Virus record (IMG/VR): IMGVR_UViG_3300033076_001343
Coordinates: 8,271 to 72,270 of that record
Strand: one strand, 5' to 3'
From: a virus
DNA: 64,000 bases
Shown here: positions 1 through 26,964 of the stretch, piece after piece
How the letters are laid out: each line of letters opens with the position of its first letter
Numbering within the stretch: position 1 is the first letter of the stretch
Program-made: the position numbers and the translations under genes
The notes under the pieces: model-generated
Database searches by the model: none
What the model was told of the DNA's origin: nothing
What the model saw: only the letters and a program-made list of their open reading frames with translations

Positions 1-116
1 CCTCAACCCAGTTAAACAAATACAGGTATTCCCCGTTCACATTCTTATAAAGTTTCTCTCTCGTTTTCATAGGTCAAAGATACAACAATTTTTTAAACTG
101 CCAAAATTTTTTTTGT

Positions 117-217
117 AGTCAGGACAGGATTTGAACCTGTACAGGGGGTCATTACTGAGGTCTAGAACATCCCCAAGGGCTGGTGTCCCTCGCGTTTACC
201 AATTCCGCCACCTGACT
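117..217 (-). tRNA. tRNA-like gene, atypical length (101 nt), isotype unresolved
   Basis: Minus strand: 7-bp acceptor AGTCAGG/CCTGACT, 3-bp D stem GCG..CGC with 11-nt loop, T arm ACAGG-TTCAAAT-CCTGT. The anticodon arm cannot be folded canonically and ~30 extra nt lie between the D and T arms. Confidence 0.4.
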
Positions 218-386
218 ATTTTTTACAGTAGGTAGTAAGGTACTAGTTAGTTAGACTTTCCCTTACCCCGTTATTAAACCTGCAATAACATTTTAGTTTT
301 GGACACTGCTGGTGGAAAGTTATCAAAACCACCTCACGCATAGTCTACTATCTAAGAACTACCAAAGAATCATAGCTAACTCTCGT

Positions 387-483
387 AGTCAGGACAGGAA
401 TCGAACCTGTTATCTCCCATTTGGATGCCTACTCCACACTCGGTGTCTCGGACTTGGTGCGTCTGCCAACACGCCACCTGACT
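387..483 (-). tRNA. tRNA-like gene, atypical length (97 nt), paralog of 117-217
   Basis: Same acceptor stem AGTCAGG/CCTGACT and T arm ACAGG-TTCGATT-CCTGT as 117-217; D arm GCG..CGC; central region divergent with no clean anticodon arm. Confidence 0.4.
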
Positions 484-603
484 AAATGTTTTTAGTTACT
501 TTATCAACACTTCTCCAAGAACCACCTCGGCCAGTTTATATCAATTTCACTTAGGTTACGTCATGATTCCGTTGGTTAGACCTCCTCAATCAAAACCTGT
601 TTG

Positions 604-712
604 TAGCCAAGGTCGGACTCGAACCGAATACCGTTCAAGACGGATTAGACAACCTTATAACTTCTCTCGTCCAAAGGGTTATGGACAGTAGTGTTTTTCG
701 GACTTGGGTACC
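604..712 (-). tRNA. tRNA-like element, 3' half convincing, 5' boundary uncertain
   Basis: T arm TCGG-TTCGAGT-CCGA followed by acceptor 3' strand CTTGGCT + A. Best 5' partner ACCCAAG at 703-709 has one mismatch, giving about 108 nt. Confidence 0.3.
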
Positions 713-813
713 ATCCCGCATTACGTCCACTTGACTATGTTCCTCGTCTTTCCGAGGTGTCAACCATCCATGTGCCATTCTGCTTACGCTTCTGTGGTTA
801 GGCAGGATTTTGT

Positions 814-903
814 AGTCAGGACAGGATTCGAACCTGTACTCCCCGTTACAGGGAGCGTGATACAGCCCCCGAAGCGGCTGTGACACCCAATTGCCACCTG
901 ACT
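814..903 (-). tRNA. tRNA-like, probably type II (long variable arm), 90 nt
   Basis: Same acceptor/T arm as 117-217 and 387-483. Variable-arm hairpin CTCCC-TGTAAC-GGGAG. Candidate anticodon stem CAGCC/GGCTG encloses an 8-nt loop GCTTCGGG, which is non-canonical. Confidence 0.45.
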
Positions 904-978
904 ATCTACCCCACTTCACCAGGTTAATGGACTGGCTGCCATATGGGAGTGGGGGTTTCCTGTTATTTCAGGACTCCG

Positions 979-1051
979 TGGTGAGAGCTGGAATCGAACC
1001 AGCGGCACGTGGATTTTCAGTCCACTGCTCTACCTACTGAGCTATCACACC
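979..1051 (-). tRNA. tRNA-Phe (GAA)
   Basis: Clean cloverleaf: GGTGTGA-TAGCTCAGTAGGTAGAGC-AGTGGA CTGAAAA TCCAC-GTGCC-GCTGG TTCGATT CCAGC-TCTCACC-A. CCA not encoded. Confidence 0.9.
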
Positions 1052-1546
1052 AAATGTGAGGTTGAGAACCTCTGTGTTGTTAGGTAAGACCCAATTAGTC
1101 ATCATTTCTGATGGGTTATCAATTATCCTACTTATGGTTAATTCCTTTCTCAAGGGAACAACACAATATTGTTGATAGTGTTGGAGTACCCATCTCGCTC
1201 CAATCTTAACTGCTTAATCGTAGTTTTACGAGGCCTCGGCAGAAACGGTGATGAATTCCGGTTCCACTCTGGATTGTCGACATCCGTTGAGCGGAGAAAA
1301 CCACTATCAATATCATTAAGTTACTCAACCCCTCACGTCCTTTCACTCTTGGGGTTAATGGTCTTGCGGACCACCATTACGGATTCATCTCTCACTAGGA
1401 AGACGCTCAGTTCATGAATCTTGCTCCTCTCTGAAGTAACTTTTTATTTATCTAATTTCAAAGAACTTTTTCTTTTTTGTTTTACAAAGATATGTAGGAT
1501 TTTTTAATCCGCCAAACACTTTGTAAAATATTTTTTATTTTTTTTG

Positions 1547-1668
1547 TAGTTAAGACAGGACTCGAACCTGTAACCAAGAGTCAAGCAGTTAGCCCTTTTC
1601 AGGGTTAGGGATTATGACCATTCCCACATTTAACACACCACTTCGTATACCACTTCCGACACTTAACT
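1547..1668 (-). tRNA. tRNA-like element, 122 nt span if the acceptor pairing is real; possibly interrupted or degenerate
   Basis: 3' end has T arm ACAGG-TTCGAGT-CCTGT + CTTAACT-A. A complementary AGTTAAG lies at 1662-1668. The interior contains a CTGAAAA (Phe-like) loop but no canonical fold. Confidence 0.3.
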
Positions 1669-1727
1669 TCCATTCTAATGAGAGCATCCCACCTCAAAGG
1701 CTGTTCATAAACTAGCTTAATTAGAGT

Positions 1728-1799
1728 AGTCCCTGTAGGATTCGAACCTACGACCACTTGCATGTAAGGCAAGAACTCTACCACTGAGTTAAGGGACTA
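1728..1799 (-). tRNA. tRNA-Val (TAC)
   Basis: AGTCCCT-TA-ACTC AGTGGTAG AGTT-CTTGC CTTACAT GCAAG-TGGTC-GTAGG TTCGAAT CCTAC-AGGGACT-A. Confidence 0.9.
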
Positions 1800-1883
1800 T
1801 TTTGGTTTCCAACATGTCAAAGAACTTTCTCTCTTGTTTGATGGTACAAAGATAAAAACTTTTTTCTAAACTTGCACCATCGG

Positions 1884-1925
1884 GTAAAAAAAAAACCCCA
1901 AACTTTTTTTGAAGTTCGGGGTTTA
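1884..1925 (-). terminator. intrinsic terminator (minus sense) ending one tRNA transcription unit
   Basis: ACCCCGAAC...GTTTGGGGT hairpin followed by a T9 run in minus sense. Confidence 0.55.
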
Positions 1926-2101
1926 ACCTTATTTGTTATTTCTAACTTGTTATTTTACCACATTTTCCGAACTACAATTTTCTACATAGCGATACCAGCT
2001 ACAAATCTCTTGTTGCTTAAACGACGATATATGGACCATTGTTGTTCTCATTGTTTTATAATTATACTCAATTATAGTAAAAGTTTATATTTTGTCAAAT
2101 T

Positions 2102-2392
2102 TTAATTAAAAAATTCTTCACCTTGTGGAAACCCACCAACGATTTTCCAAACTGCATTTGGGTTTTCTTCGTTGTAAGATACTTTATAATACCCATCCAC
2201 TACAGGTGTTGTTAAAGCAGCGTCAGAGAAAACTTGTTGAGATTCTTGTAGACACGCCCAACAACTTCCAACAATATCAACACATGGTTGACATAATCCT
2301 AAATCTTCAGCGTAAACTGTTGTTGATGGAGTTAATTCTAAAACACCCTCAAGTGTTGTTGAATATGCGGTTGTGAAACTAAGTGTTGCCAT
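2102..2392 (-). CDS. hypothetical protein embedded in the tRNA array
   Basis: 96-aa ORF on the tRNA strand. TATTTATAG motif directly upstream of the start (sense strand). The overlapping + ORF 2125-2376 is judged spurious. Confidence 0.45.
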   Translation of the reverse strand: MATLSFTTAYSTTLEGVLELTPSTTVYAEDLGLCQPCVDIVGSCWACLQESQQVFSDAALTTPVVDGYYKVSYNEENPNAVWKIVGGFPQGEEFFN

Positions 2393-2437
2393 AATTTTTC
2401 TTTTACTATAAATATATGGGAACCTTTAAATGTTTAG

Positions 2438-2518
2438 TACCTTAGGAGGGACTCGAACCCTCACGACTTATGTCACTAGTTCCTAAGACTAGCGTGTCTA
2501 CCATTCCACCACCAAGGC
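2438..2518 (-). tRNA. tRNA-Leu (TAG), type II
   Basis: Anticodon arm CTAGT-CTTAGGA-ACTAG; long variable arm TGACATAAGTCGT; T arm GAGGG-TTCGAGT-CCCTC; acceptor has G.U pairs. Confidence 0.8.
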
Positions 2519-2623
2519 ATATATATCACATCAGACGGGCATTCTACTTCCAGCACCGAGAAATCGTATCTAATTTAACCCTACTCACCGCTGTATGGGT
2601 ACCTGAAGATATGATATATTTTG

Positions 2624-2697
2624 TACCCCCGTCAGGATTCGAACCTGAGACCTACTGCTTAGAAGGCAGTTGCTCTATCCATCTGAGCTACGAAGGC
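2624..2697 (-). tRNA. tRNA-Arg (TCT)
   Basis: D arm TAGCTCAGATGGATAGAGC; anticodon arm ACTGC-CTTCTAA-GCAGT; T arm TCAGG-TTCGAAT-CCTGA; acceptor GCCTTCG/CGGGGGT has three wobble pairs. Confidence 0.75.
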
Positions 2698-2705
2698 AAA
2701 TTTAG

Positions 2706-2790
2706 TACTCGGAGCGGGAATCGAACCCGCACGGGCGTAAAGCCCACAAGATTTTAAGTCTGGCGTGTCTACCTATTCCACCACCCGAGC
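2706..2790 (-). tRNA. tRNA-Leu (TAA), type II
   Basis: D arm near-identical to Leu(TAG); anticodon loop CTTAAAA; variable-arm hairpin GGGC-TTTA-GCCC; T arm GCGGG-TTCGATT-CCCGC. Confidence 0.75.
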
Positions 2791-2848
2791 ATTTATTATT
2801 TCAAAGAACTATGGTACAAATATAATTGATTTTTTGGAAAGATACAAG

Positions 2849-3616
2849 TTACTCAGCAAAACTTTCTTCATAAATTGTATCGGTCTGATTTTCTTCAGTA
2901 TTGTAAGTGTGTTCTAAAGTCACTGTCGAATCGTTAAAGTTGAATGTAAAAACACCATCAGAACCTTCATTGATTTCCCACCCTCCAAAAGCATTTTCAA
3001 GCTCTCTGTAACACCAATTTTCTATTTCAGCGGGTACTGCATCGCCAGTTGGGTCGAATGAACTTTCAATATAACCTGAGTCACCTCCACCATTATATGG
3101 TAATGTTAATATACCATCATTTGGAATTTCAATTTCAGACATGTCATTTTCCATCCATCTATCAAATCTTTCTTTGTCTTCATCAGAATCAAATTCAACC
3201 AGATGACCATTGTCCCTACCATAATAATAAAGTTCATGTGTTACAGAAATTACTTTCTCTTCTGTGTCTATGCCAATTGATGCCCTTTGATTACTAATAT
3301 AATCAATGTCAATATCATTATTTAGATTGTCTAACGAATCGGCATATTCAAGAACTTTTTTTAAGATAGGCTTCAATCCTTCTGGTATGTCTGCAGTATA
3401 ACTGTTGTCAAATCTAGTTACGTGATTCCAATTAACGTCTTTTGAATTAATTTTATCGTCATCTTGTTCCATCTCAATGTCGACATATCCTCTTTTCAAA
3501 CCTAAAGAATTCAAATAGTTTGAGACTCTTCTTAGATATTTTTTTTCTTCTGGTGTTAATATTCCTTTCATATTATTAAATATCAGTCTTCTATGTTCAT
3601 TGTCCTCAACATCCAC
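2849..3616 (-). CDS. acidic hypothetical protein (in tRNA array)
   Basis: 255-aa ORF, D/E-rich; start may be the internal Met at about 3571 to avoid overlap with the upstream gene. Confidence 0.5.
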   Translation of the reverse strand: MDVEDNEHRRLIFNNMKGILTPEEKKYLRRVSNYLNSLGLKRGYVDIEMEQDDDKINSKDVNWNHVTRFDNSYTADIPEGLKPILKKVLEYADSLDNLNNDIDIDYISNQRASIGIDTEEKVISVTHELYYYGRDNGHLVEFDSDEDKERFDRWMENDMSEIEIPNDGILTLPYNGGGDSGYIESSFDPTGDAVPAEIENWCYRELENAFGGWEINEGSDGVFTFNFNDSTVTLEHTYNTEENQTDTIYEESFAE

Positions 3617-3930
3617 TGAGGTCGTTTATTTTCTGAAATATTTATAATCCATTCTTTTGCAGATGGAACATAGTTATTACAATCTTCTCTAACATGTTGT
3701 TCACCAACATAACGAGTGTAAACTATTTTTCCATCACTATTCAAGAATTCGGCACCAAATCTTTTTTCCATTTCAAAGATACCTTCACTGTGGTGTCGAA
3801 ACATTCTATGCAAAGAATCTCCCAACCAACCTTTGGTCTCATCCATCCATTCATGTAGATGAATATAATCTTCAGGTTTTCCACCGAACTTTTTTGCGGA
3901 ACTTTTTGCGTGTAAATTTGGATGTGCCAT
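3583..3930 (-). CDS. hypothetical His-rich protein (115 aa)
   Basis: The six-frame ORF 3583-4119 runs through the tRNA-like gene at 3946-4020; I truncated it to the Met at 3928-3930 (MAHPNLHAKSS...). Confidence 0.5.
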   Translation of the reverse strand: MAHPNLHAKSSAKKFGGKPEDYIHLHEWMDETKGWLGDSLHRMFRHHSEGIFEMEKRFGAEFLNSDGKIVYTRYVGEQHVREDCNNYVPSAKEWIINISENKRPQWMLRTMNIED

Positions 3931-3945
3931 AAGTTTATTTAATAG

Positions 3946-4020
3946 TGGAGCCAGTGGGAATCGAACCCACCTCAGAAACATTGCAAGTGTTTCTCGCCAA
4001 GCCTTGGTACATGTAACCCC
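3946..4020 (-). tRNA. tRNA-like, possible tRNA-Ala (TGC) with poorly formed D arm
   Basis: T arm GTGGG-TTCGATT-CCCAC; anticodon arm GAAACA-CTTGCAA-TGTTTC (anticodon TGC); acceptor GGGGTTA/TGGCTCC needs several G.U pairs; D arm non-canonical. Confidence 0.4.
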
Positions 4021-4247
4021 ATTAACTTGTCTTGTCTGTCTGTTCCATGTTTTGTTGACTGTAAGCATCACAATCAACTTTTTCAACTTTACATGAGAAC
4101 AAAGCAAACCCGAGAACAATCAAAATTATAACACCGAATGCGATACGAAATTTTGTTTCTAAATTTTTTTCATCTTGTTCCATAATCTTATTTTTATAGT
4201 ATAACGTATTAATTCGGTACTTTGGTTGTTCTTTGTTAAAAATTTTG

Positions 4248-4321
4248 AGCCTCCTGAGGGATTCGAACCCACGACCCGCTGATTACAAATCAGCTGCTCT
4301 GGCCAACTGAGCTAAGGAGGC
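4248..4321 (-). tRNA. tRNA-Thr (TGT)
   Basis: GCCTCCT-TAGCTCAGTTGGCCAGAGC-A-GCTGA TTTGTAA TCAGC; perfect acceptor pairing; one mismatch in the T stem. Confidence 0.85.
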
Positions 4322-4326
4322 GATTT

Positions 4327-4402
4327 TGGCGGTCCCAACGGGATTCGAACCCGTACCTCGCACCGTGACAGGGTGGAATTGTAACCATTCAACCATGAGA
4401 CC
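4327..4402 (-). tRNA. tRNA-Asp (GTC), CCA encoded
   Basis: Anticodon loop CTGTCAC on a 4-bp stem; T arm ACGGG-TTCGAAT-CCCGT; 3' end TGGGACC-G-CCA encoded. Confidence 0.7.
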
Positions 4403-4619
4403 AAGTTTCCCCACCTGAGATTACAGTAAGTAGATATTCATAGTTTTTCTATTCAAAACCCATAGCGTCTTACCGCTTAAAAGTCAACCATATACTCGGA
4501 GGTCAAGATGGTCTTCTTGCCTTTTTTCCGACGACCCCTTCTTCTAAAACCGTGAGAGGCGTTAGCTATACCATTTTTCAGTAACGGTACCAAAACTACT
4601 GAGTATCTCTTACTCATTG

Positions 4620-4692
4620 AGCGGGAGACGAGGTTCGAACTCGCGACTTATAGCTTGGAAGGCTATCGCTCTACCAACTGAGCTACTCCCGC
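4620..4692 (-). tRNA. tRNA-Gly (TCC)
   Basis: GCGGGAG-TAGCTCAGTTGGTAGAGC-G-ATAGC CTTCCAA GCTAT; acceptor perfectly paired. Confidence 0.85.
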
Positions 4693-4694
4693 AG

Positions 4695-4769
4695 TGGAGC
4701 GGGAAGGCGGAATCGAACCGCCGTATCCACCTTGGCAAGGTGGCGTAATAACCATTATACTACTCCCGC
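4695..4769 (-). tRNA. tRNA-Gly (GCC), CCA encoded
   Basis: Anticodon arm CCACC-TTGCCAA-GGTGG; T arm GGCGG-TTCGATT-CCGCC; 3' TTCCCGC-T-CCA. Separated from Gly(TCC) by 2 nt. Confidence 0.85.
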
Positions 4770-4912
4770 TTTTTTTATTTTCTCTTTCTAATCAGTTTCT
4801 TCAGTTTTCTTAACAAATTAATTTCTTTACCTGCAATTATAAATTCCTTTTTTCCTGATTCGAAAGTTCCTGATAAAACTTTTTTCATCATTCTTCTTTT
4901 TTATTGTTTATT

Positions 4913-4987
4913 TGGCGGTCTATGCGAGAATCGAACTCGCGGCACATCCGTGACAGGGATGTATGTTTGCCACTACACCAATAGACC
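4913..4987 (-). tRNA. tRNA-Asp (GTC), second copy, CCA encoded
   Basis: GGTCTAT-TG-GTGT AGTGGCAA ACAT-A-CATCC CTGTCAC GGATG-TGCC-GCGAG TTCGATT CTCGC-ATAGACC-G-CCA. Confidence 0.8.
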
Positions 4988-4993
4988 GTATTG

Positions 4994-5065
4994 CGTCCCC
5001 TCAAGGATTCGAACCTTGGACCTATTGGTTAACAGCCAATTGCTCTACCGCTGAGCTAAGAAGAC
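4994..5065 (-). tRNA. tRNA-Asn (GTT)
   Basis: Anticodon arm ATTGG-CTGTTAA-CCAAT; D arm TAGCTCAGCGGTAGAGC; T arm CAAGG-TTCGAAT-CCTTG. Confidence 0.85.
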
Positions 5066-5072
5066 GTAAATG

Positions 5073-5146
5073 TCGGGGTGGCAGGATTCGAACCTACGAC
5101 CTCTTGGTCCCAAACCAAGCGCGATACCTGGCTACGCTACACCCCG
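5073..5146 (-). tRNA. tRNA-Pro (TGG)
   Basis: Acceptor CGGGGTG/CACCCCG; anticodon arm CTTGG-TTTGGGA-CCAAG; T arm GTAGG-TTCGAAT-CCTGC. Confidence 0.85.
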
Positions 5147-5203
5147 ATTATATTTTTCCCATATGTCAAAGAACACTACAAAGATAATACAAAAATCCTA
5201 TAA

Positions 5204-5238
5204 AACAAAAAAACCCCGAACTTTTTGTGTTCAGGGTT
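5204..5238 (-). terminator. intrinsic terminator (minus sense), sequence-related to the one at 1884-1925
   Basis: AACCCTGAAC...GTTCGGGGT + T7 in minus sense; lies upstream (in transcription sense) of the tRNA array. Confidence 0.5.
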
Positions 5239-5421
5239 AATCATTTTTGGCTTCTTATTACCTTTGATTAAATCTGAACACGTGAGCATAAATCTCTCCC
5301 CCCGTCATTCGTCGGTGCTAAAGTCGCTCTAAGTGTGTTCAAATTTTTCATTGTTGTAATAATAGTATAAATAGTAACAAAAGTCAAAAAATCAATTGTA
5401 ATTCAATAAAAATTCGTATAT

Positions 5422-6003
5422 TTGTTTAAACGACATATCAATATGAAAAATCTATCATTAATTTTTACTTTATTCTTAATGACTAATTTACTTGGTCAAC
5501 ATAAAATCACATCTATTAGTGAATATAACGAATGGTCCACAAGAAAAAAAACTAACGACTTATTAAAAACAAATTTTGATGGTGGCACATACATTGATTC
5601 CGTTTTAATCTTATTAAACGAGTATCGTGTTGAGAATGGAGTTGAGCCTCTTATTTTAACCGACAACTTATGTAAAGTTGCCGAATTACAATCTCAATAT
5701 TGTGCAGACAATTTAATTCTAACTCACGACCAAGATGATGAATCTTTAAGTGACCCGTTTCTTCGTGGTTTAAAATTTAATGAAAGAGACGTAATGGGTG
5801 AAGTAGCCGCAGAATGTTCAATTGATATGTTATCAATTAAAAATAAAACTGTTTCATCATCACCAATTGAAAACTTAAAAACAAGTAGTGGTCATTCTCA
5901 AATCATGAGAGATGGAAAATATGTTAGTTGTGGTATTTCTTTAGTTCAATCAAAAAGAGACCTTAATCGTTACTATGTGGTAATTGTTTTTTCAACTAAT
6001 TAA
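5422..6003 (+). CDS. secreted CAP/SCP/PR-1-like domain protein
   Basis: N-terminal signal peptide (MKNLSLIFTLFLMTNLLG). CAP-like motifs: Y-R-x-x-N-G...PL (HNxxR region) and GHSQIMRDGKYVSCG (resembles GHYTQVVW...VGC). TATATTTG motif 5 nt upstream of the ATG. Confidence 0.5.
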   Translation: MFKRHINMKNLSLIFTLFLMTNLLGQHKITSISEYNEWSTRKKTNDLLKTNFDGGTYIDSVLILLNEYRVENGVEPLILTDNLCKVAELQSQYCADNLILTHDQDDESLSDPFLRGLKFNERDVMGEVAAECSIDMLSIKNKTVSSSPIENLKTSSGHSQIMRDGKYVSCGISLVQSKRDLNRYYVVIVFSTN

Positions 6004-10377: not shown

Positions 10378-10866
10378 ATGAGTAATGTATTGGTATTGAA
10401 TTACGACTATACCCCGTTGAACCTAACTTCAACAAGGAGGGGGTTTGTACTTGTAGATAAAGGTAAAGCTGAAATTATCAAAGCGGATAATAACCCAATT
10501 GTGTGCGGTTATGAAACATATGTTCGACCTCTTATTATTAGATTATTGAACTACGTAAAGTTCAGTCGAAAAACTTCAAAGGTAAATCGTAATAGAATTT
10601 ATAAACGGGATGGTCATGAATGTGTGTATTGTGGTTCAAGTAAACAATTAACTCTTGACCACGTATTACCTAAATCACGTGGAGGTAAAAATGAATGGAC
10701 AAACTTGGTGACTTGTTGTTTTAAATGTAACTTAAGAAAAGGAAATAGAACACCTGAAGAGGCAAAGATGGTTATGAGACATAAACCATATGTGCCATCG
10801 ATTATGAACGACAGTGCGGTATTAAATAAAGCTTGGACAGAATACCAAGAATCCTTTGTTTATTAG
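10378..10866 (+). CDS. HNH endonuclease
   Basis: CVYCGSSKQLTLDHVLPKSRGGKNEWTNLVTCCFKCNLRKGNR matches the HNH motif (Cys pairs plus His and Asn). Confidence 0.85.
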   Translation: MSNVLVLNYDYTPLNLTSTRRGFVLVDKGKAEIIKADNNPIVCGYETYVRPLIIRLLNYVKFSRKTSKVNRNRIYKRDGHECVYCGSSKQLTLDHVLPKSRGGKNEWTNLVTCCFKCNLRKGNRTPEEAKMVMRHKPYVPSIMNDSAVLNKAWTEYQESFVY

Positions 10867-22127: not shown

Positions 22128-22625
22128 ATGAACATCTTTTTTCTTGATAACGATATCAAAAAATGTGCACAATATCACTGTGACAAACACGTGGTAAAAA
22201 TGATTTTGGAAACCGCTCAACTCCTATGTGGTGTTCATCATATGACCCCCCAAGTCGCCCCCCAAGTCCCATACAAATTGTCTCACAAAAATCACCCTTG
22301 TGCCATTTGGGCTCGTGAGTCATTAACCAACTATTTGGTATTGTGTGAACTTGGTTTGGAGTTATGTCTTGAATACACTTATCGTTATGGTAAAAGACAT
22401 AAGTCTCAAGATGTAATTGAATGGTGTGTCATCAATAAGCCAAGTATTCAGGACATTGGTCATACCGAACCTCCAAAGGCAATGCCTGATGAATACAAAG
22501 TGGATTCTGTGGTAGAATCCTATAGAAATTACTACAGAGGTGCAAAATCATCCTTTGCAGTTTGGAAAAATAGAGAAAAACCTTTTTGGTTTGAAGAAAA
22601 AGTATTAGATTTGCAGTATGATTAA
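22128..22625 (+). CDS. conserved hypothetical protein (FLDNDIKKCAQYHCDKHVVKMILETAQLL)
   Basis: 165-aa ORF; TATATTTG motif upstream. Confidence 0.5.
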   Translation: MNIFFLDNDIKKCAQYHCDKHVVKMILETAQLLCGVHHMTPQVAPQVPYKLSHKNHPCAIWARESLTNYLVLCELGLELCLEYTYRYGKRHKSQDVIEWCVINKPSIQDIGHTEPPKAMPDEYKVDSVVESYRNYYRGAKSSFAVWKNREKPFWFEEKVLDLQYD

Positions 22626-23280
22626 AATTGATAAAGACTTTAAAGGAAATGTGTGGATTTTTTCTGACCCACATTATAACCACAAAAACATCTGTCGTGG
22701 TACAACTAATTGGCGTTTACCAAATGGTGAAATTCCAATCGAGCAAACTCGTGATTTTCCTGACTTGAGTAAAATGAATGCCACAATCGTGAATAACATC
22801 AACGAGAATGTGATGCAAGATGATATCTTGATTTGTCTTGGTGATTGGTCTTTTGGTGGGTTCGAATCTATCAAAGAGTTTTGGGACCGAATAGTTTGTA
22901 AAAACATTCACTTGGTTCTTGGAAACCACGACCACCACATCGAGAACAACCGACAAGGGTGTCAGGGTTACTTCTTGAGTGTTTCTCACTACAACACTCT
23001 AAAAATTGGAGAGCATACCTTCAGATTGATGCACTACCCAATCAGTTCTTGGGATGGACTGAATAAAGGTGTGATGCACCTTCACGGTCACTGTCACTTA
23101 CCAACAAACTTACGTTTTGGTAAAGGACAACGAATGGATGTTGGAATGGACGGTCACCCTGAGTTTCGACCATACAATATTCTACGTGAAGTAGTTCCAA
23201 TGTTGAAAAAACGACCAATTACATCTGAAATGGATAATGACCACCACACAGATGAAATTCAAAACAAAGACCAAGGATGA
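22618..23280 (+). CDS. calcineurin-like metallophosphoesterase
   Basis: Motifs DPHYN (DxH), GDWSFGG (GD), GNHDHH (GNHD/E), HLHGHCH (GHxH). Confidence 0.85.
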   Translation: MIKIDKDFKGNVWIFSDPHYNHKNICRGTTNWRLPNGEIPIEQTRDFPDLSKMNATIVNNINENVMQDDILICLGDWSFGGFESIKEFWDRIVCKNIHLVLGNHDHHIENNRQGCQGYFLSVSHYNTLKIGEHTFRLMHYPISSWDGLNKGVMHLHGHCHLPTNLRFGKGQRMDVGMDGHPEFRPYNILREVVPMLKKRPITSEMDNDHHTDEIQNKDQG

Positions 23281-23615
23281 TTAAAATTGAATATTATTAT
23301 AAACAACCAAAACAAGAATACTTTGACGAGGTAAAATCGGCATGTATTAAGGCTTGGGGTTTGTTTGATGACCAATTTGGTTATGCGACCGAAAAGATTA
23401 ATAGTATCAAGGATTTGGAGAACAATGCAACAAATTACATGATGATGATTAAAATGTTTCATGTATTAAATTGGGAAATTCTCGCAGAAATGTTATCTTT
23501 GGAGACAAGAAACGATATCAGTATTAGATTGAATGCTGGTGTTGAACATTGTGAAACAGATTTCTTTAGTATTTGGGGAAAAAACGAAGCACAAGAAAAA
23601 TATGGCTACTTGTAA
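23277..23615 (+). CDS. hypothetical protein
   Basis: 112-aa ORF; shares its first 14 nt (ATGATTAAAATTGA) with the preceding gene. Confidence 0.45.
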   Translation: MIKIEYYYKQPKQEYFDEVKSACIKAWGLFDDQFGYATEKINSIKDLENNATNYMMMIKMFHVLNWEILAEMLSLETRNDISIRLNAGVEHCETDFFSIWGKNEAQEKYGYL

Positions 23616-23790
23616 AGAGTGTCCTTGGAGGATAAAAAATAAGCACAACGAATCAATTGTGGGGTTTTCCAAACGAATGGATAAACCTCACAATTGTCAC
23701 ATGGTAAAAGGAGGAAAAGACCTTTGGAATGTGGAAGAAAAAACAAAATGTAAAGGAAGACAAGATTATGAAAAATCTATATTTAGTTAG
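23602..23790 (+). CDS. small Cys/His-rich protein (possible zinc finger)
   Basis: MATCKECPWRIKNKHN...HNCHM; start chosen at the internal Met of ORF 23533-23790. Confidence 0.35.
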   Translation: MATCKECPWRIKNKHNESIVGFSKRMDKPHNCHMVKGGKDLWNVEEKTKCKGRQDYEKSIFS

Positions 23791-24178
23791 AGGACTACCT
23801 GGTTCAGGTAAATCAACATTCGCAAGGTCGATAGCCAAATCGTATCAGATATTTGAGGCCGACCAGTATTTCATGAAAAAGGGAAAATATAATTTTGACC
23901 CAAAAAAATTAAAAGACGCTCATCATGATTGCAAACAAAGAGTTGCAAGAAGAATGAGAGAAAGTTTGTTTAATGATATTTTTTTCAGTAATATTGTGGT
24001 GTCAAATACATTCACTCAAGATTGGGAAATGAAGTTTTATCGTTGTATTGCAAAACGATACGGCTATAAAGTTCATACCATTATTGTTGAGAATAGACAC
24101 GGAGGAACTAACGTCCATGGAGTTCCCGAAGAAAAAGTACAAATCATGGAAGACCGATTTGAAATAAAATTAAAATAA
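23768..24178 (+). CDS. P-loop polynucleotide kinase-like protein (kinase domain only)
   Basis: Walker A GLPGSGKST at the N-terminus; size and fold class resemble the 5'-kinase domain of T4 Pnk/bacterial Pnkp. Confidence 0.7.
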   Translation: MKNLYLVRGLPGSGKSTFARSIAKSYQIFEADQYFMKKGKYNFDPKKLKDAHHDCKQRVARRMRESLFNDIFFSNIVVSNTFTQDWEMKFYRCIAKRYGYKVHTIIVENRHGGTNVHGVPEEKVQIMEDRFEIKLK

Positions 24179-24183
24179 AACAT

Positions 24184-24402
24184 ATGCAAACGTTAATATT
24201 CAACACAACAACAAAAGAAGTAACTCTATTAGAGGGTGCGAGAGGTAAATCAGGTATTCTTGAAAACTTTAAAAACATATCAACCGTAAAAATCGAAGAT
24301 GGTTTTTATCAGGTAATGCAAAAGACAAGTGAGGATACAAATTCATCCATCCCTGTGATGAGGGTACCAATTTCAAACACAAACATGATTATCGAAAAAT
24401 AA
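24184..24402 (+). CDS. hypothetical protein
   Basis: 72-aa ORF followed by a strong intrinsic terminator. Confidence 0.4.
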   Translation: MQTLIFNTTTKEVTLLEGARGKSGILENFKNISTVKIEDGFYQVMQKTSEDTNSSIPVMRVPISNTNMIIEK

Positions 24403-24409
24403 TCAACTA

Positions 24410-24442
24410 ATCCCCATCTTTTTTACAGGTGGGGATTTTTTA
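24410..24442 (+). terminator. intrinsic terminator between the kinase block and the RNA ligase
   Basis: TCCCCATC-TTTTTTACAG-GTGGGGA + T6. Confidence 0.6.
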
Positions 24443-24469
24443 TTGCCAAAAAATTCGTATCTTTGTCCC

Positions 24470-25525
24470 ATGAGCGAATTTCTATACACTTTGGAACAAT
24501 ACAGTCGAACTGGTCATCTGTTTAAACAGACCCACCGCACTTTACCATTGTCTATATGGAACTACACTCCTGAAGTACAATACGGTCAAAAGTGGGATAA
24601 TATAACCCTACAATGCCGTGGTTTAGTAACCGACGACAAAGGTAACGTTATATCTTACCCATTCAAGAAATTCTTCAACATCGAAGAACAAAAACACACT
24701 CCAACTGAAAGTTTCGAGGTTTACGAAAAAATGGATGGTTCGTTAGGTATGTTGTTCTTTTATGAAGGTAAATGGGTGGTTGCCACTCGTGGTTCATTCC
24801 ATTCTGACCAAGCAAACAAAGCAACAGAATTGTTAAATTCAAAATACAACTTGGAATCTTTACCTAAAGGTTATACCACTTTATTTGAAATCATCTACCC
24901 TGAAAACCGTATCGTGGTTGATTATGGTAATGAAGAAATGTTGGTTGTATTGGGTATGACTAACCGATTCAACGGTAAAGAGTTGGACTATGAATCAGTT
25001 GTTAATTTGGCAAGTGAATCAGGTATGCCAGTTGTTAAGAGATATGACGGTATCAAAGATTACAACTCATTAAAGGCTTTGGTTGATAATAACTCTGAAG
25101 GTTTTGTTGTCAAATTCTCTAACGGTGACCGAATGAAAATCAAAGGTGAAGAATATCTACGACTTCACAAGATAATGACCAACGTATCAACTACTGGTGT
25201 GTGGGAAATGTTATCTTCAGGTGGTGATATCAACGAACATTTGAAAGACGTTCCTGATGAATTCTACAATAAAGTACAGGAGTATGCAAAAACTTTACAG
25301 TACGGTTTTTATCAAGTATCAGAACAATGCGGTAAAGCTCACGACTATTTCCGTTATGGAAAATATGGTGACCGTGAAACTGAACCAACTAAAAAAGAAT
25401 ATGCGGAACACGTAATGAAAAATTCGCATCCACCATATCGTTCAGTAATGTTTGCAATGTGGGATGGTAAACCATATGATAAACTTATATGGAACCTACT
25501 TAAACCTGAATTCAAAAAATTGTAA
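24470..25525 (+). CDS. ATP-dependent RNA ligase
   Basis: Nucleotidyltransferase motif I KMDGS (KxDG) and motif IV EGFVVK. Start set at MSEFLYT, directly preceded by TATCTTTG. Confidence 0.75.
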   Translation: MSEFLYTLEQYSRTGHLFKQTHRTLPLSIWNYTPEVQYGQKWDNITLQCRGLVTDDKGNVISYPFKKFFNIEEQKHTPTESFEVYEKMDGSLGMLFFYEGKWVVATRGSFHSDQANKATELLNSKYNLESLPKGYTTLFEIIYPENRIVVDYGNEEMLVVLGMTNRFNGKELDYESVVNLASESGMPVVKRYDGIKDYNSLKALVDNNSEGFVVKFSNGDRMKIKGEEYLRLHKIMTNVSTTGVWEMLSSGGDINEHLKDVPDEFYNKVQEYAKTLQYGFYQVSEQCGKAHDYFRYGKYGDRETEPTKKEYAEHVMKNSHPPYRSVMFAMWDGKPYDKLIWNLLKPEFKKL

Positions 25526-25526
25526 T

Positions 25527-25772
25527 ATGGAACAAGTGTTTAAAGAAATTTACGAACAGAATATAGACCATAGCATGATTCTTGACAAAGAATCTGTTAT
25601 GGTTTGTATTGAAAAATCTTACGAGATTGGGAAAGAAGAATCTCAAGAAAAATATGACAAACTGAAAAGTGCGTTTGAAGATTTGCTGGAACTTTGGGGT
25701 GACTACGGGAAATACAATTCTTCCCGTAATCACATGGAAGAGGACTGGAGAAAGGAGGCAGGACTATCATGA
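25527..25772 (+). CDS. hypothetical protein
   Basis: Start moved to MEQVFKE to avoid overlap with the ligase. Confidence 0.4.
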   Translation: MEQVFKEIYEQNIDHSMILDKESVMVCIEKSYEIGKEESQEKYDKLKSAFEDLLELWGDYGKYNSSRNHMEEDWRKEAGLS

Positions 25773-25975
25773 CAAATGAAGAAAGAATCGAAGAACGATT
25801 GATGCACGCACATGAAAGGGGTTATTACCATAAGGTTATGACTAAAGTTAAAGAATTGATTAAAATAAACCCAAAGGCAAACCAATATGAATTGTACGAA
25901 ACGGTTTGTGACGAATATAAACAAGAATGGTTGAACGAAAATGAAAATGGAACTACTGAACACACACCCAATTAA
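25769..25975 (+). CDS. hypothetical protein
   Basis: 68-aa ORF. Confidence 0.4.
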   Translation: MTNEERIEERLMHAHERGYYHKVMTKVKELIKINPKANQYELYETVCDEYKQEWLNENENGTTEHTPN

Positions 25976-26366
25976 GAAATCTGATTTAGGATTTCATGGA
26001 AACCTTTTTGGTGGAAAGTTATTAGCTTGGATTGACGCCGCGGCTGCAGGTTACTCAATGCAGTTGTGTGATAGTCCAAGGATGGTAACAGTATCTATTG
26101 ATAAATGTTATTTTGAAAAACCCGCAAGAGAAGGTCAATTATTGAAAATTTACGGACACCCAAGTAAGTTGGGTAATACGTCCATAACTCTTTACATGGA
26201 GGCAAGAGCACATAATGTTTACACAGGAAATCAAGTTGTGGTCTTGAAAACAAACATAAGATTTGTTAGAATTGACGAGGAAGGGAATCCGATTCCGATT
26301 GGAGAAAAGGGTAGAAACCGAATCGAAAAACTAATCAATGATTTTAAAGAAAATAATGAAGGGTAA
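25941..26366 (+). CDS. hotdog-fold acyl-CoA thioesterase
   Basis: HGNLFGGKLLAWIDAAAAGYSM is typical of YbgC/4HBT-like thioesterases. Confidence 0.7.
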   Translation: MKMELLNTHPIKKSDLGFHGNLFGGKLLAWIDAAAAGYSMQLCDSPRMVTVSIDKCYFEKPAREGQLLKIYGHPSKLGNTSITLYMEARAHNVYTGNQVVVLKTNIRFVRIDEEGNPIPIGEKGRNRIEKLINDFKENNEG

Positions 26367-26964
26367 ATTAGTATATCAAACTGCAGACCCAGAGATGGTC
26401 AATAGTGTGGAGGGATGGTTTATTCGTTCTGATTCCTCTTATCAAGTGTCGGAATTATCAGTTAAAAAAATTAACAGTGGCAAATACAACATCAAAGATG
26501 GTGATGAGGTAGAATTTGAGATTGAAACAAATTGCTCTGTTATTGATGGTGTTAAGGTTATCCACTCCGTTGTCGCAAAAATAGTAATGGAAGATAATCA
26601 ATACACAAAAGTTTTCCTAATTGATATTGATGGGACAATTTGTGATGATATTAAAAATGAAGAAAGTCACTTATATCCAACAGCCAAATTATTTCCATCG
26701 GCACTTGAGATAATCAATAAGTGGTATGACGAAGGTCATGTTATAACATTCTTTACCGCTCGTGAAGGTAAAGACCGTGAAGTAACTGAAACTTGGTTGA
26801 AAGAGAATGGTTTTAAATATCATGGTTTAGTGATGGACAAACCAAGAATTAAAGATAATCAAGAATACGTTTGGATTGATAATCGAAAAGTTAGAGCGGT
26901 CACTTATTTAGGTACTTGGTCAGAACTCAGAGAGGTTGATGCGAAAATACAAATATTTGAATAA
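26338..26964 (+). CDS. HAD-superfamily phosphatase (nucleotidase / polynucleotide 3'-phosphatase-like) with N-terminal extension
   Basis: Motif I LIDIDGTI (DxDGT), motif II TFFTAR, C-terminal WIDNRK. About 90-aa N-terminal domain of unknown function. Confidence 0.65.
   Translation: MILKKIMKGKLVYQTADPEMVNSVEGWFIRSDSSYQVSELSVKKINSGKYNIKDGDEVEFEIETNCSVIDGVKVIHSVVAKIVMEDNQYTKVFLIDIDGTICDDIKNEESHLYPTAKLFPSALEIINKWYDEGHVITFFTAREGKDREVTETWLKENGFKYHGLVMDKPRIKDNQEYVWIDNRKVRAVTYLGTWSELREVDAKIQIFE

Follow-up and report, generated by a model that had tools for sequence, protein, structure and literature searches.

Phage RNAs with a tRNA-Leu-type frame and variable interiors in a viral tRNA cluster

Shell RNAs in the phage tRNA cluster

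The DNA analysed here (the window) comprises 64,000 nt and corresponds to positions 8,271-72,270 of the IMG/VR record IMGVR_UViG_3300033076_001343. It is a fragment of a tailed phage with genes for a head maturation protease, an Rnl1-type RNA ligase, an HNH endonuclease and a thymidylate synthase as markers. The GC content is 33.6% and the statistics of the open reading frames (ORFs) fit the standard genetic code. A tRNA cluster on the minus strand occupies the first 10 kb, in which ARAGORN predicted 14 genes and Rfam detected 13 good tRNAs with scores of 52-76 bits. Three members of this cluster, termed A, B and C, combine a constant tRNA-like frame with differing interiors. We refer to the frame as the shell and to these genes as shell RNAs. 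A preliminary description of the locus had listed the three with lengths of 101, 97 and 90 nt. All three are real, and with the discriminator base A73 included their lengths become 102, 98 and 91 nt, all on the minus strand. A structural scan added two further members, D and E. The five elements are:

116-217, minus strand (217->116): shell RNA A, 102 nt
386-483, minus strand (483->386): shell RNA B, 98 nt
604-736, minus strand (736->604): shell RNA D, 133 nt
813-903, minus strand (903->813): shell RNA C, 91 nt
1547-1668, minus strand (1668->1547): shell RNA E, 122 nt, outside the interval of the preliminary description

The identical acceptor stem (AGTCAGG/CCTGACT) and T stem that had been noticed in A, B and C were confirmed, and the three also share the discriminator base A. 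All of them start with AGUCAGG-UG-GC and end with ACAGG-UUC(A/G)A(A/U)U-CCUGU-CCUGACU-A. Within the window this identity is far beyond chance. The 25-mer ACAGGTTCRAWTCCTGTCCTGACTA occurs in three exact copies (116-140, 386-410 and 813-837, minus strand) at a shuffle expectation of 0.00, with a fourth copy containing three mismatches at 1547-1571, and the 11-mer AGTCAGGTGGC occurs three times (207-217, 473-483 and 893-903) against 0.19 expected copies.

The D regions of A, B and C are of the bacterial tRNA-Leu type. In A the acceptor strand AGUCAGG is followed by U8, G9 and the D arm GCG-GAAUUGGUAAA-CGC. The interior consists of the hairpin GAGGG(A)C-ACCA-GCCCUU, a second hairpin of 30 nt (GGGG...CCCC) and the sequence CUGU, before the T arm ACAGG-UUCAAAU-CCUGU, the strand CCUGACU and A73 complete the 3' part. 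B has the same acceptor and T stem, the D arm GCG-UGUUGGCAGA-CGC and an interior of 48 nt (ACCAAGUCCGAGACACC..GGAGUAGGCAUCCAAAUGGGAGAUA). The 3-bp GCG/CGC D stem reported earlier for A and B is thus present, and C also has a D arm, GGCA-AUUGGG-UGUC, with the 4-bp stem GGCA/UGUC and the loop AUUGGG. Acceptor and T arm of C are the same as in A, and between its D and T arms C contains two hairpins, ACAGCCGC-UUCG-GGGGCUGU (approximately 8 bp, capped by a tetraloop) and GCUCCCUG-UAA-CGGGGAGU; its folding z-score is -4.2. A tetraloop forms the apical loop of both A (ACCA) and C (UUCG); this loop varies between orthologues (UUCG versus AUUG). By manual count, the GC content of A, B and C is roughly 55-65%.

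Element D carries a variant shell with the acceptor AGUCAAG/CUUGGCU, including U3.G70, and the T arm UCGG-UUCGAGU-CCGA, in which a mismatch at 49:65 leaves the 4-bp stem UCGG/CCGA. A D-arm-like hairpin with GG (GGGAUGGUACCC) is displaced inward, and the interior forms a long central hairpin plus an extra hairpin, CCGU-CUUGA-ACGG, before the T arm. An SRL-like reading of the motif CGAGAG in D, made by eye, was dropped because the consensus was not matched. E has the acceptor AGUUAAG/CUUAACU, the D arm UCG-GAAGUGGUAUA-CGA, the T arm ACAGG-UUCGAGU-CCUGU with the same T stem as A-C, and A73; its interior contains a GGGA..UCCC and a CCCU-GAAA-AGGG hairpin. All five elements possess the 7-bp end-closed acceptor stem and the discriminator base of a tRNA. 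A T arm with a 5-bp stem and a 7-nt UUCRANY loop is found in A, B, C and E, which have the 7/5 acceptor/T geometry, and D deviates with its stem of 4 bp. The D stems of A, B and E comprise 3 bp and enclose loops containing GG; that of C comprises 4 bp.

The preliminary description found no canonical anticodon arm (5-bp stem, 7-nt loop) in A, B or C. This was upheld by ARAGORN in default mode and by the Rfam alignments, and an arm with a 5-bp stem, a 7-nt loop, U33 and R37 is absent from all five elements. ARAGORN in default mode called only C among A-E, as a 92-nt tRNA-Pro(cgg) with a mismatched stem. The supposed anticodon sits on the UUCG-capped helix. In an orthologue of C on contig L153 (L-numbers are labels of related contigs) this position reads AUUG and ARAGORN reported "tRNA-?(attg)". 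Consequently, the CGG of C is not conserved, and no anticodon is conserved among the orthologues.

The Rfam tRNA model (gathering threshold 29 bits) gave 45.4 bits for A, which required an insert of 38 nt in the region of the anticodon, and 30.6 bits for C (small search only), with the D and anticodon arms unaligned; both scores come from the shell alone. E remained below the threshold with 17.6 bits, B showed no tRNA match, and D matched no Rfam family. The tRNA-Sec model gave 19.6 bits for B at a gathering score of 47 bits, and this value and the 7/5 geometry do not fit a tRNA-Sec or allo-tRNA, in which a helix of 12-13 bp made up of acceptor and T stem is divided 8/4, 9/3 or 9/4 and the D stem is long. 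No tmRNA was called in the window by ARAGORN or Rfam, and the 3:70 pair is U3-A70, not G3:U70. In Rfam searches of the window and of 19 shell loci from other contigs, made at gathering and E-value thresholds, the matches to raiA-hairpin, YrlA and tRNA-Sec were all below threshold, and neither Intron_gpI nor any other family was found in the interiors.

Apparently, the shell RNAs are not ordinary tRNAs, as had been proposed: a standard search did not yield canonical isotypes. The more specific suggestions fared differently. Intron-containing tRNAs are not supported, since the intron mode of ARAGORN returned scattered isotypes (Arg for A, Ser for B, Pro for C) with mismatched stems and "introns" at the non-canonical positions 32, 37 and 29. 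The inserts of 20-130 nt are also shorter than any group I intron. The comparison with type II tRNAs holds insofar as A and C place two hairpins where the anticodon and variable arms would be, a likeness of architecture only. A role as suppressor tRNA in stop-codon recoding was dropped, as the ORF statistics indicate the standard code and the UUCUAGA motif in A lacks a supporting stem. Two normal tRNA-Leu genes of the same phage, at 2438-2518 and 2706-2790, were recognised by ARAGORN and Rfam and have other acceptor stems.

The shell family in other phage contigs

Sequence collections were scanned with exact motifs as seeds, so the size and diversity of the family given here are lower bounds. 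The 25-nt 3' shell occurs in at least more than 120 IMG/VR contigs, with up to five exact copies per locus among the matches listed. Among these matches are 119 distinct sequences, in which AGTCAGG and the 3' end lie 54 to 182 nt apart with a continuous spread of lengths, and their interiors are mostly unrelated to each other. The 5' half, which lay outside the query, nearly always reads AGUCAGG-UG-GCGGAAU(U)GGUAGACGC. This is a typical bacterial tRNA-Leu D arm, and BLAST of the 5' half retrieved annotated tRNA-Leu genes. In the fetched loci the AGTCAGG acceptor closes 181 non-canonical structures versus at most 17 that ARAGORN regards as canonical, several of the latter dubious on inspection. 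The 221 canonical tRNAs of these loci use many different acceptors. In a few members this acceptor/T chassis carries what seems to be a real tRNA, for example a tRNA-Lys(UUU) in L038. Of the possibilities raised in the preliminary description, a family of tRNA mimics that keeps the ends and varies the middle is therefore favoured: the same shell is found on more than 100 unrelated interiors of approximately 20-130 nt among phage contigs.

In all loci checked, the shell elements have canonical tRNAs around them. Rfam analysis of the 19 shell loci likewise showed elements embedded in tRNA clusters, scoring 31-50 bits as tRNA. L156 (IMGVR_UViG_3300032229_000578), a relative of the phage studied here, carries ten shell RNAs in 4 kb (690-4121). 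Relatives, L035 and L011 among them, contain 9-10 shell RNAs within a few kb. In L065 a phage tmRNA (553-939, minus strand, 68.8 bits in Rfam) directly adjoins shell RNAs.

No cultured phage was found to carry the element with the 25-mer or the two-half shell query, and the D-type RNA had no match in INPHARED. Megablast of window positions 1-6000 returned ordinary tRNA genes only and no near relative among cultured phages. A scan of 185,579 GTDB species genomes gave 21 matches, all on contigs of metagenome-assembled genomes (MAGs) from scattered taxa, many with lake or river isolate names, and none in a cultured host genome. Since the shell is absent from cultured phages and hosts and, in the GTDB scan, limited to these 21 MAG contigs, it is phage-specific and not a copy of a known host tRNA. 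The idea of a host tRNA with the same shell, serving as attachment site (attP/att) or as model for mimicry, was rejected on the basis of the same scan. To judge from the contig names, the phages are apparently mostly freshwater phages. Rfam 15 contains no family that covers the shell RNAs, and full-text literature searches yielded no prior description of such a family. It looks like an apparently undescribed, large family of non-decoding, tRNA-framed RNAs.

The bases of the tertiary core were not selected for by the search. Nevertheless, U8 is kept in 146 of 150 sequences across the family, A14 in 96/99, A15 in 89/99, the GG of the D loop in 99/99 and U48, just before the T stem, in 125/150. 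A U precedes the first base (position -1) in 140 of 170 cases, and A73 is followed by C74 in 170 of 178, while CCA is encoded in 3 of 178. Thus, the conserved unit is the whole top half of a tRNA together with its tertiary core. In bacteria, leucine identity for leucyl-tRNA synthetase (LeuRS) consists of A73 and the pairs U8-A14, A15-U48, G18-U55 and G19-C56, and removal of the entire anticodon stem-loop lowers the affinity of LeuRS only 2.5-fold (Yao et al. 2008, PMC2377443). These identity bases are all present in A and B and are kept family-wide. Judged from the sequence, the part of tRNA-Leu that the shell RNAs have discarded would be the part that LeuRS does not need. The shell RNAs are possibly chargeable by LeuRS, and in A, C and D a hairpin adjoins the T arm that could take the role of the variable arm.

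The interiors are richer in GC than their loci in 71 of 91 cases (median 41% versus 34%). Clustering gave 22 interior subfamilies, in which 23 of 29 variable pairs stay paired, 11 of them by compensatory changes. When the partners were displaced by 1-3 columns, pairing persisted in only 30 of 220 cases, a control in which the structures come from the same alignments and which favours kept pairs. In the subfamily L012/L041 the stem GUUGAA/UUCAAC is changed to GAGCAA/UUGCUC, with both loop (GCUGGGUAA) and 5' stretch (UAUACUUAAGCA) invariant. In L011/L076 two helices are altered by double substitutions. The D type forms a conserved family of its own with 14 distinct IMG/VR sequences. Its core, ACACCACGGUCCA...UGGACGCGAGAAGUUAUAAGGUUG, is conserved while the shell sequence and even the discriminator (A or U) change. 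The acceptor and T stems differ between members and covary; among the 24 consensus pairs of a 13-sequence alignment, 10 carry compensatory changes, located in the acceptor, the T stem and internal helices. The interiors thus appear to be under selection.

Relatives of the individual elements were retrieved through interior DNA motifs. A, B, C and D have orthologues of 91-97% identity on further contigs, where the order is rearranged or the flanks differ. Those of C are L156:690-779 (97%) and a copy on the minus strand of L153 (93%), in which a G.G mismatch is replaced by A-U so that the helix is extended, with AUUG as the loop. Those of B, L156:3069-3165 and L197:6120-6217, are 91-95% identical, and the differences concentrate in one small hairpin loop (GAG/CUU/GAU). 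Orthologues of A were found only in metagenome contigs, identical in L227 and L228 and variant in L230 and L231; a motif scan for A in IMG/VR gave chance matches only. In the two variants the flanks differ and a C is changed to U, by which one predicted fold retains a pair as G.U, whereas the position is unpaired in the consensus fold. D has orthologues in many loci, and E had none in the related loci compared.

The repertoire of shell RNAs differs among close relatives. Gene order differs between the window and L156, and L187, L212 and L222 have retained D beside a different set of members. The rearranged order and the differing repertoires of such close relatives point to rapid turnover, probably via recombination between identical shells. 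A whole T arm copied from another member lies inside some interiors (L156:4030-4121; L035; L187/L212/L222 at 93 nt), which also indicates frequent recombination between members.

Two subfamilies of interiors, L012/L039/L041 and L072/L081/L112, keep the hexamer CUUAAG. This self-complementary sequence is that of the anticodon loop of tRNA-Leu(UAA), here outside a canonical anticodon stem, and it may be a relic of an ancestral tRNA-Leu or a kissing-loop motif. When the interiors were compared with the window by BLAST, no antisense targets emerged above chance. A purine-riboswitch-like reading of L119/L038, made by eye, was dropped, as the consensus was not matched.

A proposed scaffold with cargo and its alternatives

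The reading that we favour, with a probability of about 0.5, is that the shell RNAs are non-decoding scaffolds built from the top half of a tRNA, which would undergo tRNA-like processing and present a variable structured cargo. In its favour are the shell identity beyond chance, the extent of the family, the rarity of canonical tRNAs with this acceptor, the kept tertiary core with the LeuRS identity bases, the lack of a conserved anticodon, the signs of selection on the interiors, and the position among canonical tRNAs in a phage that already has two normal tRNA-Leu genes. The top half would consist of the acceptor/T-arm stack and the D-loop/T-loop elbow of a bacterial-type tRNA-Leu, with a structured insert, the cargo, replacing the anticodon and variable arms. 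The RNAs would be transcribed together with the phage tRNA cluster; promoter-like sites exist in the cluster, although such consensus matches are weak evidence. The conserved U at -1 led us to propose cleavage by RNase P at A1. Because C74 is encoded and CCA is not, we further propose that the trimmed 3' end would be completed by the host CCA-adding enzyme. The invariant tertiary core is predicted to fold the RNA into a nuclease-resistant, L-shaped body with the cargo as its lower limb. The shell would then be a chassis for processing and stability, possibly chargeable by LeuRS, and the specific function would reside in the insert, probably through binding of a host or phage factor.

Several observations weigh against this interpretation. 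Across approximately 140 loci, the neighbourhood of the elements yielded no conserved partner protein; the commonest neighbouring protein cluster occurs in only 17 of them, and by eye its representative resembles a large terminase. No cargo matched an Rfam family in the window or the 19 loci. The interior GC content of 41% is only modestly above the genomic 34%, and A and B fold no more stably than shuffled sequences (z -0.3 and -1.2). The shifted-partner control leans towards kept pairs, as stated above. The orthologues of A, B and C are too close for double compensatory changes and show wobble-preserving or loop changes only. Direct covariation support is weak for these three, and the claim of selection therefore rests on the family as a whole. 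Finally, the internal T arms in some interiors look like recombination debris.

A more far-reaching version, which we regard as rather unlikely, is that phages of low-GC hosts maintain a rapidly shuffling "display library" of RNA modules on a LeuRS-competent top half. The cargoes would act as decoys or inhibitors of host factors, for example as mimics of defence RNAs or as uncleavable nuclease baits. In a variant of this idea the RNAs would be charged with leucine and never decode.

Among the alternatives to the scaffold with cargo, the one that survives best, though we hold it as a tentative possibility, reverses the roles of the two parts. Here the shell itself would be functional, the RNAs being mimics of the tRNA-Leu top half, and the interior would be compact, uncleavable filler with quick turnover. 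As decoys or sponges they could target proteins that read the acceptor and elbow, namely LeuRS, EF-Tu, tRNA-targeting toxins or anticodon nucleases, and modification or processing enzymes; alternatively, the RNAs would serve as leucine-charged non-decoding carriers. The conservation of a complete LeuRS identity set beside a non-conserved interior agrees with this explanation, as do the stable tetraloop-capped helices in place of the anticodon loop in A and C and the different repertoires of close relatives. A healing-and-sealing cassette at 22.6-27 kb (kinase, Rnl1-type ligase, phosphatases) suggests that tRNA-cleaving defences are encountered. However, filler has no need of conserved loops, yet loops and single strands of several subfamilies are invariant beside covarying stems, for example UAUACUUAAGCA and GCUGGGUAA in L012/L041 and the D-type core, and the D type keeps its core while the shell and the discriminator change. 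One decoy would be enough, yet 5-10 different ones are found per genome. The conservation of loops and single strands in subfamilies with covarying stems, and the 5-10 cargoes per genome, are the reasons why we prefer the scaffold reading over filler.

It is improbable that the elements are functionless debris, i.e. decaying tRNA-Leu duplicates or recombination products whose shells are kept uniform by gene conversion or homing-endonuclease exchange. Identical shells of 25-30 nt are good recombination substrates, and the rearranged order in L156, the fragments of other members inside some interiors, at least one copy without a 5' shell (L120), the weakened T stems of some D-type copies and the GIY-YIG or HNH genes near many clusters (12 loci; window 10378-10866) would all be expected from such a process. 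In contrast, decay should be uniform, yet scattered bases of the tertiary core and the -1 and +74 positions are conserved, pairs within interiors are preferentially maintained, interiors are GC-rich in a 34% GC genome, and specific interiors persist at 91-97% identity across phages and flanks.

Least of all do we believe that the elements are tRNAs that truly decode, be it as type II tRNAs with odd anticodon arms or through post-transcriptional removal of small introns: the Rfam scores of A and C, the tRNA-Pro(cgg) call for C, the canonical anticodon arms of a few same-shell RNAs such as that of L038 and the encoded Rnl1-type ligase fit this notion, but the scores stem from the shell, A-E lack an anticodon arm, the Arg, Ser and Pro isotypes clash with a Leu-type body, the CGG of C becomes AUUG in its orthologue, the interiors lack the length of a group I intron, and an intron-splicing endonuclease was not seen among the window ORFs scanned (about 20 ORFs of at least 120 aa lay outside that scan).

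Stable tRNA-like RNAs of phage tRNA clusters have been known since the species 1 and 2 RNAs of T4. To our knowledge, the function of species 1 RNA was never settled. This RNA (rnaC; species 2 is rnaD) is the closest classical analogue of the shell RNAs, a likeness of kind for which we claim no homology. It is 139 nt long, is labelled "small, stable RNA" in GenBank and, like the shell RNAs, belongs to a phage tRNA cluster, with the tRNAs encoded on its strand. After its canonical T arm, CCGGG-UUCGAAU-CCCGG, comes a strand paired to the 5' end of the RNA, and a long stable interior (z -4.6) takes the place of the anticodon region. The shell RNAs share this anatomy of a T arm with closing stem and a long non-anticodon interior within a phage tRNA cluster. 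Unlike them, rnaC has no tRNA-Leu-type D arm, its acceptor-like stem is irregular, and no sequence similarity is evident. In T4 it is a single gene, not a multi-copy family with an invariant shell and interchangeable interiors. What is unusual here is one invariant Leu-type chassis with more than 100 cargoes, present in multiple copies in many uncultured phages.

Further systems resemble the shell RNAs in part. Ponchon and Dardel are reported to have engineered a tRNA scaffold for recombinant RNA expression in which a cargo takes the place of the anticodon arm. It agrees with the shell RNAs in topology and presumed logic, with the acceptor, D and T parts kept for processing and protection and any structured RNA as the insert; that scaffold is a laboratory construct, whereas the shell RNAs are natural and phage-encoded and have a type II (Leu) body in which the variable arm is replaced too. 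The tRNA-like domain of tmRNA also joins an acceptor stem and a T arm to a large body that stands where the anticodon arm would be, does not decode in the usual sense and is sometimes phage-encoded. In contrast to tmRNA, the shell RNAs have no G3:U70, tag frame or pseudoknots, possess a full D arm and measure 90-135 instead of about 350 nt. Bacterial type II tRNA-Leu is matched in GUGGCGGAAUUGGUAGACGC, the 3-bp D stem, A73, U8-A14, A15-U48, G18G19 and the UUCRAAU loop. The shell RNAs differ from it by the absence of an anticodon arm and Leu anticodon, an unrelated interior of 20-130 nt and A1-U72 for the usual G1-C72. The module of YrlA and other bacterial Y RNAs is another noncoding mimic of the elbow and the acceptor/T stack that occurs in some phages. 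Its topology is reversed, as the 5' and 3' ends of the RNA form the Ro-binding stem and not an acceptor stem. The Rfam YrlA matches were at chance level, with 15-27 bits at a gathering score of 69 bits, and covered ordinary tRNAs only. No rsr gene turned up among the window ORFs scanned, although no search was aimed at it.

With hundreds of natural variants on a constant chassis, the question raised by the T4 species 1 and 2 RNAs becomes testable. If the scaffold reading is true, the family would be a natural precedent for the tRNA-scaffold trick and a catalogue of more than 100 structured RNA modules. The display-library version, if true, would mean an RNA-based counter-defence arsenal of 5-10 members per genome. 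Moreover, tRNA finders miss these genes or assign arbitrary isotypes, as with "tRNA-Pro(cgg)" for C, which distorts phage tRNA inventories and inferences on codon usage.

Other features of the window

A set of genes for RNA healing and sealing lies at 22618-26964:

22618-23280: calcineurin-like phosphoesterase
23729-24178: AAA_33 P-loop kinase
24443-25525: T4 Rnl1-type RNA ligase
26338-26964: HAD-type phosphatase

This set resembles the Pnkp/Rnl1 tRNA repair pathway of T4 and suggests that the phage faces tRNA-cleaving host defences.

An HNH homing-endonuclease gene (10378-10866, plus strand) lies beside the tRNA cluster of the window, and GIY-YIG-like ORFs, judged by eye and not by a family-library scan, occur near the clusters of 12 of approximately 140 related loci. 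Their position recalls segB in the T4 tRNA region. Such endonucleases could spread or homogenise the shell at the DNA level.

Three further stretches on the minus strand of the cluster deserve mention. At 1052-1546, between E and tRNA-Phe, the folding energy beats that of all shuffled sequences (z -3.1) and Rfam gave no match. Positions 1141-1318 are 93.8% identical to L156:1808-1985, and a 38-nt piece of them (1141-1178), which contains TTGAGA-17-TAGGAT, occurs as four repeats in L156. The region may hold another structured RNA and/or a repeated promoter.

The second stretch, 1893-2098, starts with a perfect sigma-70 consensus promoter, TTGACA-16-TATAAT (2098->2071), followed after about 150 nt by a strong intrinsic terminator with a 13-bp stem and a T run (1924->1893). 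It is likely a unit for a small RNA or a peptide just upstream of tRNA-Val. The surrounding block 1726-2110 is present in L156 with 94.6% identity.

The third stretch, 3946-4020, forms a 75-nt cloverleaf that both ARAGORN and Rfam missed. It has the acceptor GGGGUUA/UGGCUCC with G3:U70, the anticodon loop CUUGCAA (UGC, Ala), A73 and the T arm GUGGG-UUCGAUU-CCCAC, and its D arm comprises merely a 4-bp stem and a 3-nt loop. The cloverleaf overlaps the 5' part of a mechanically predicted ORF (3583-4119) whose PHROG match covers aa 64-171 only. Probably, it is a tRNA-Ala with a reduced D arm.

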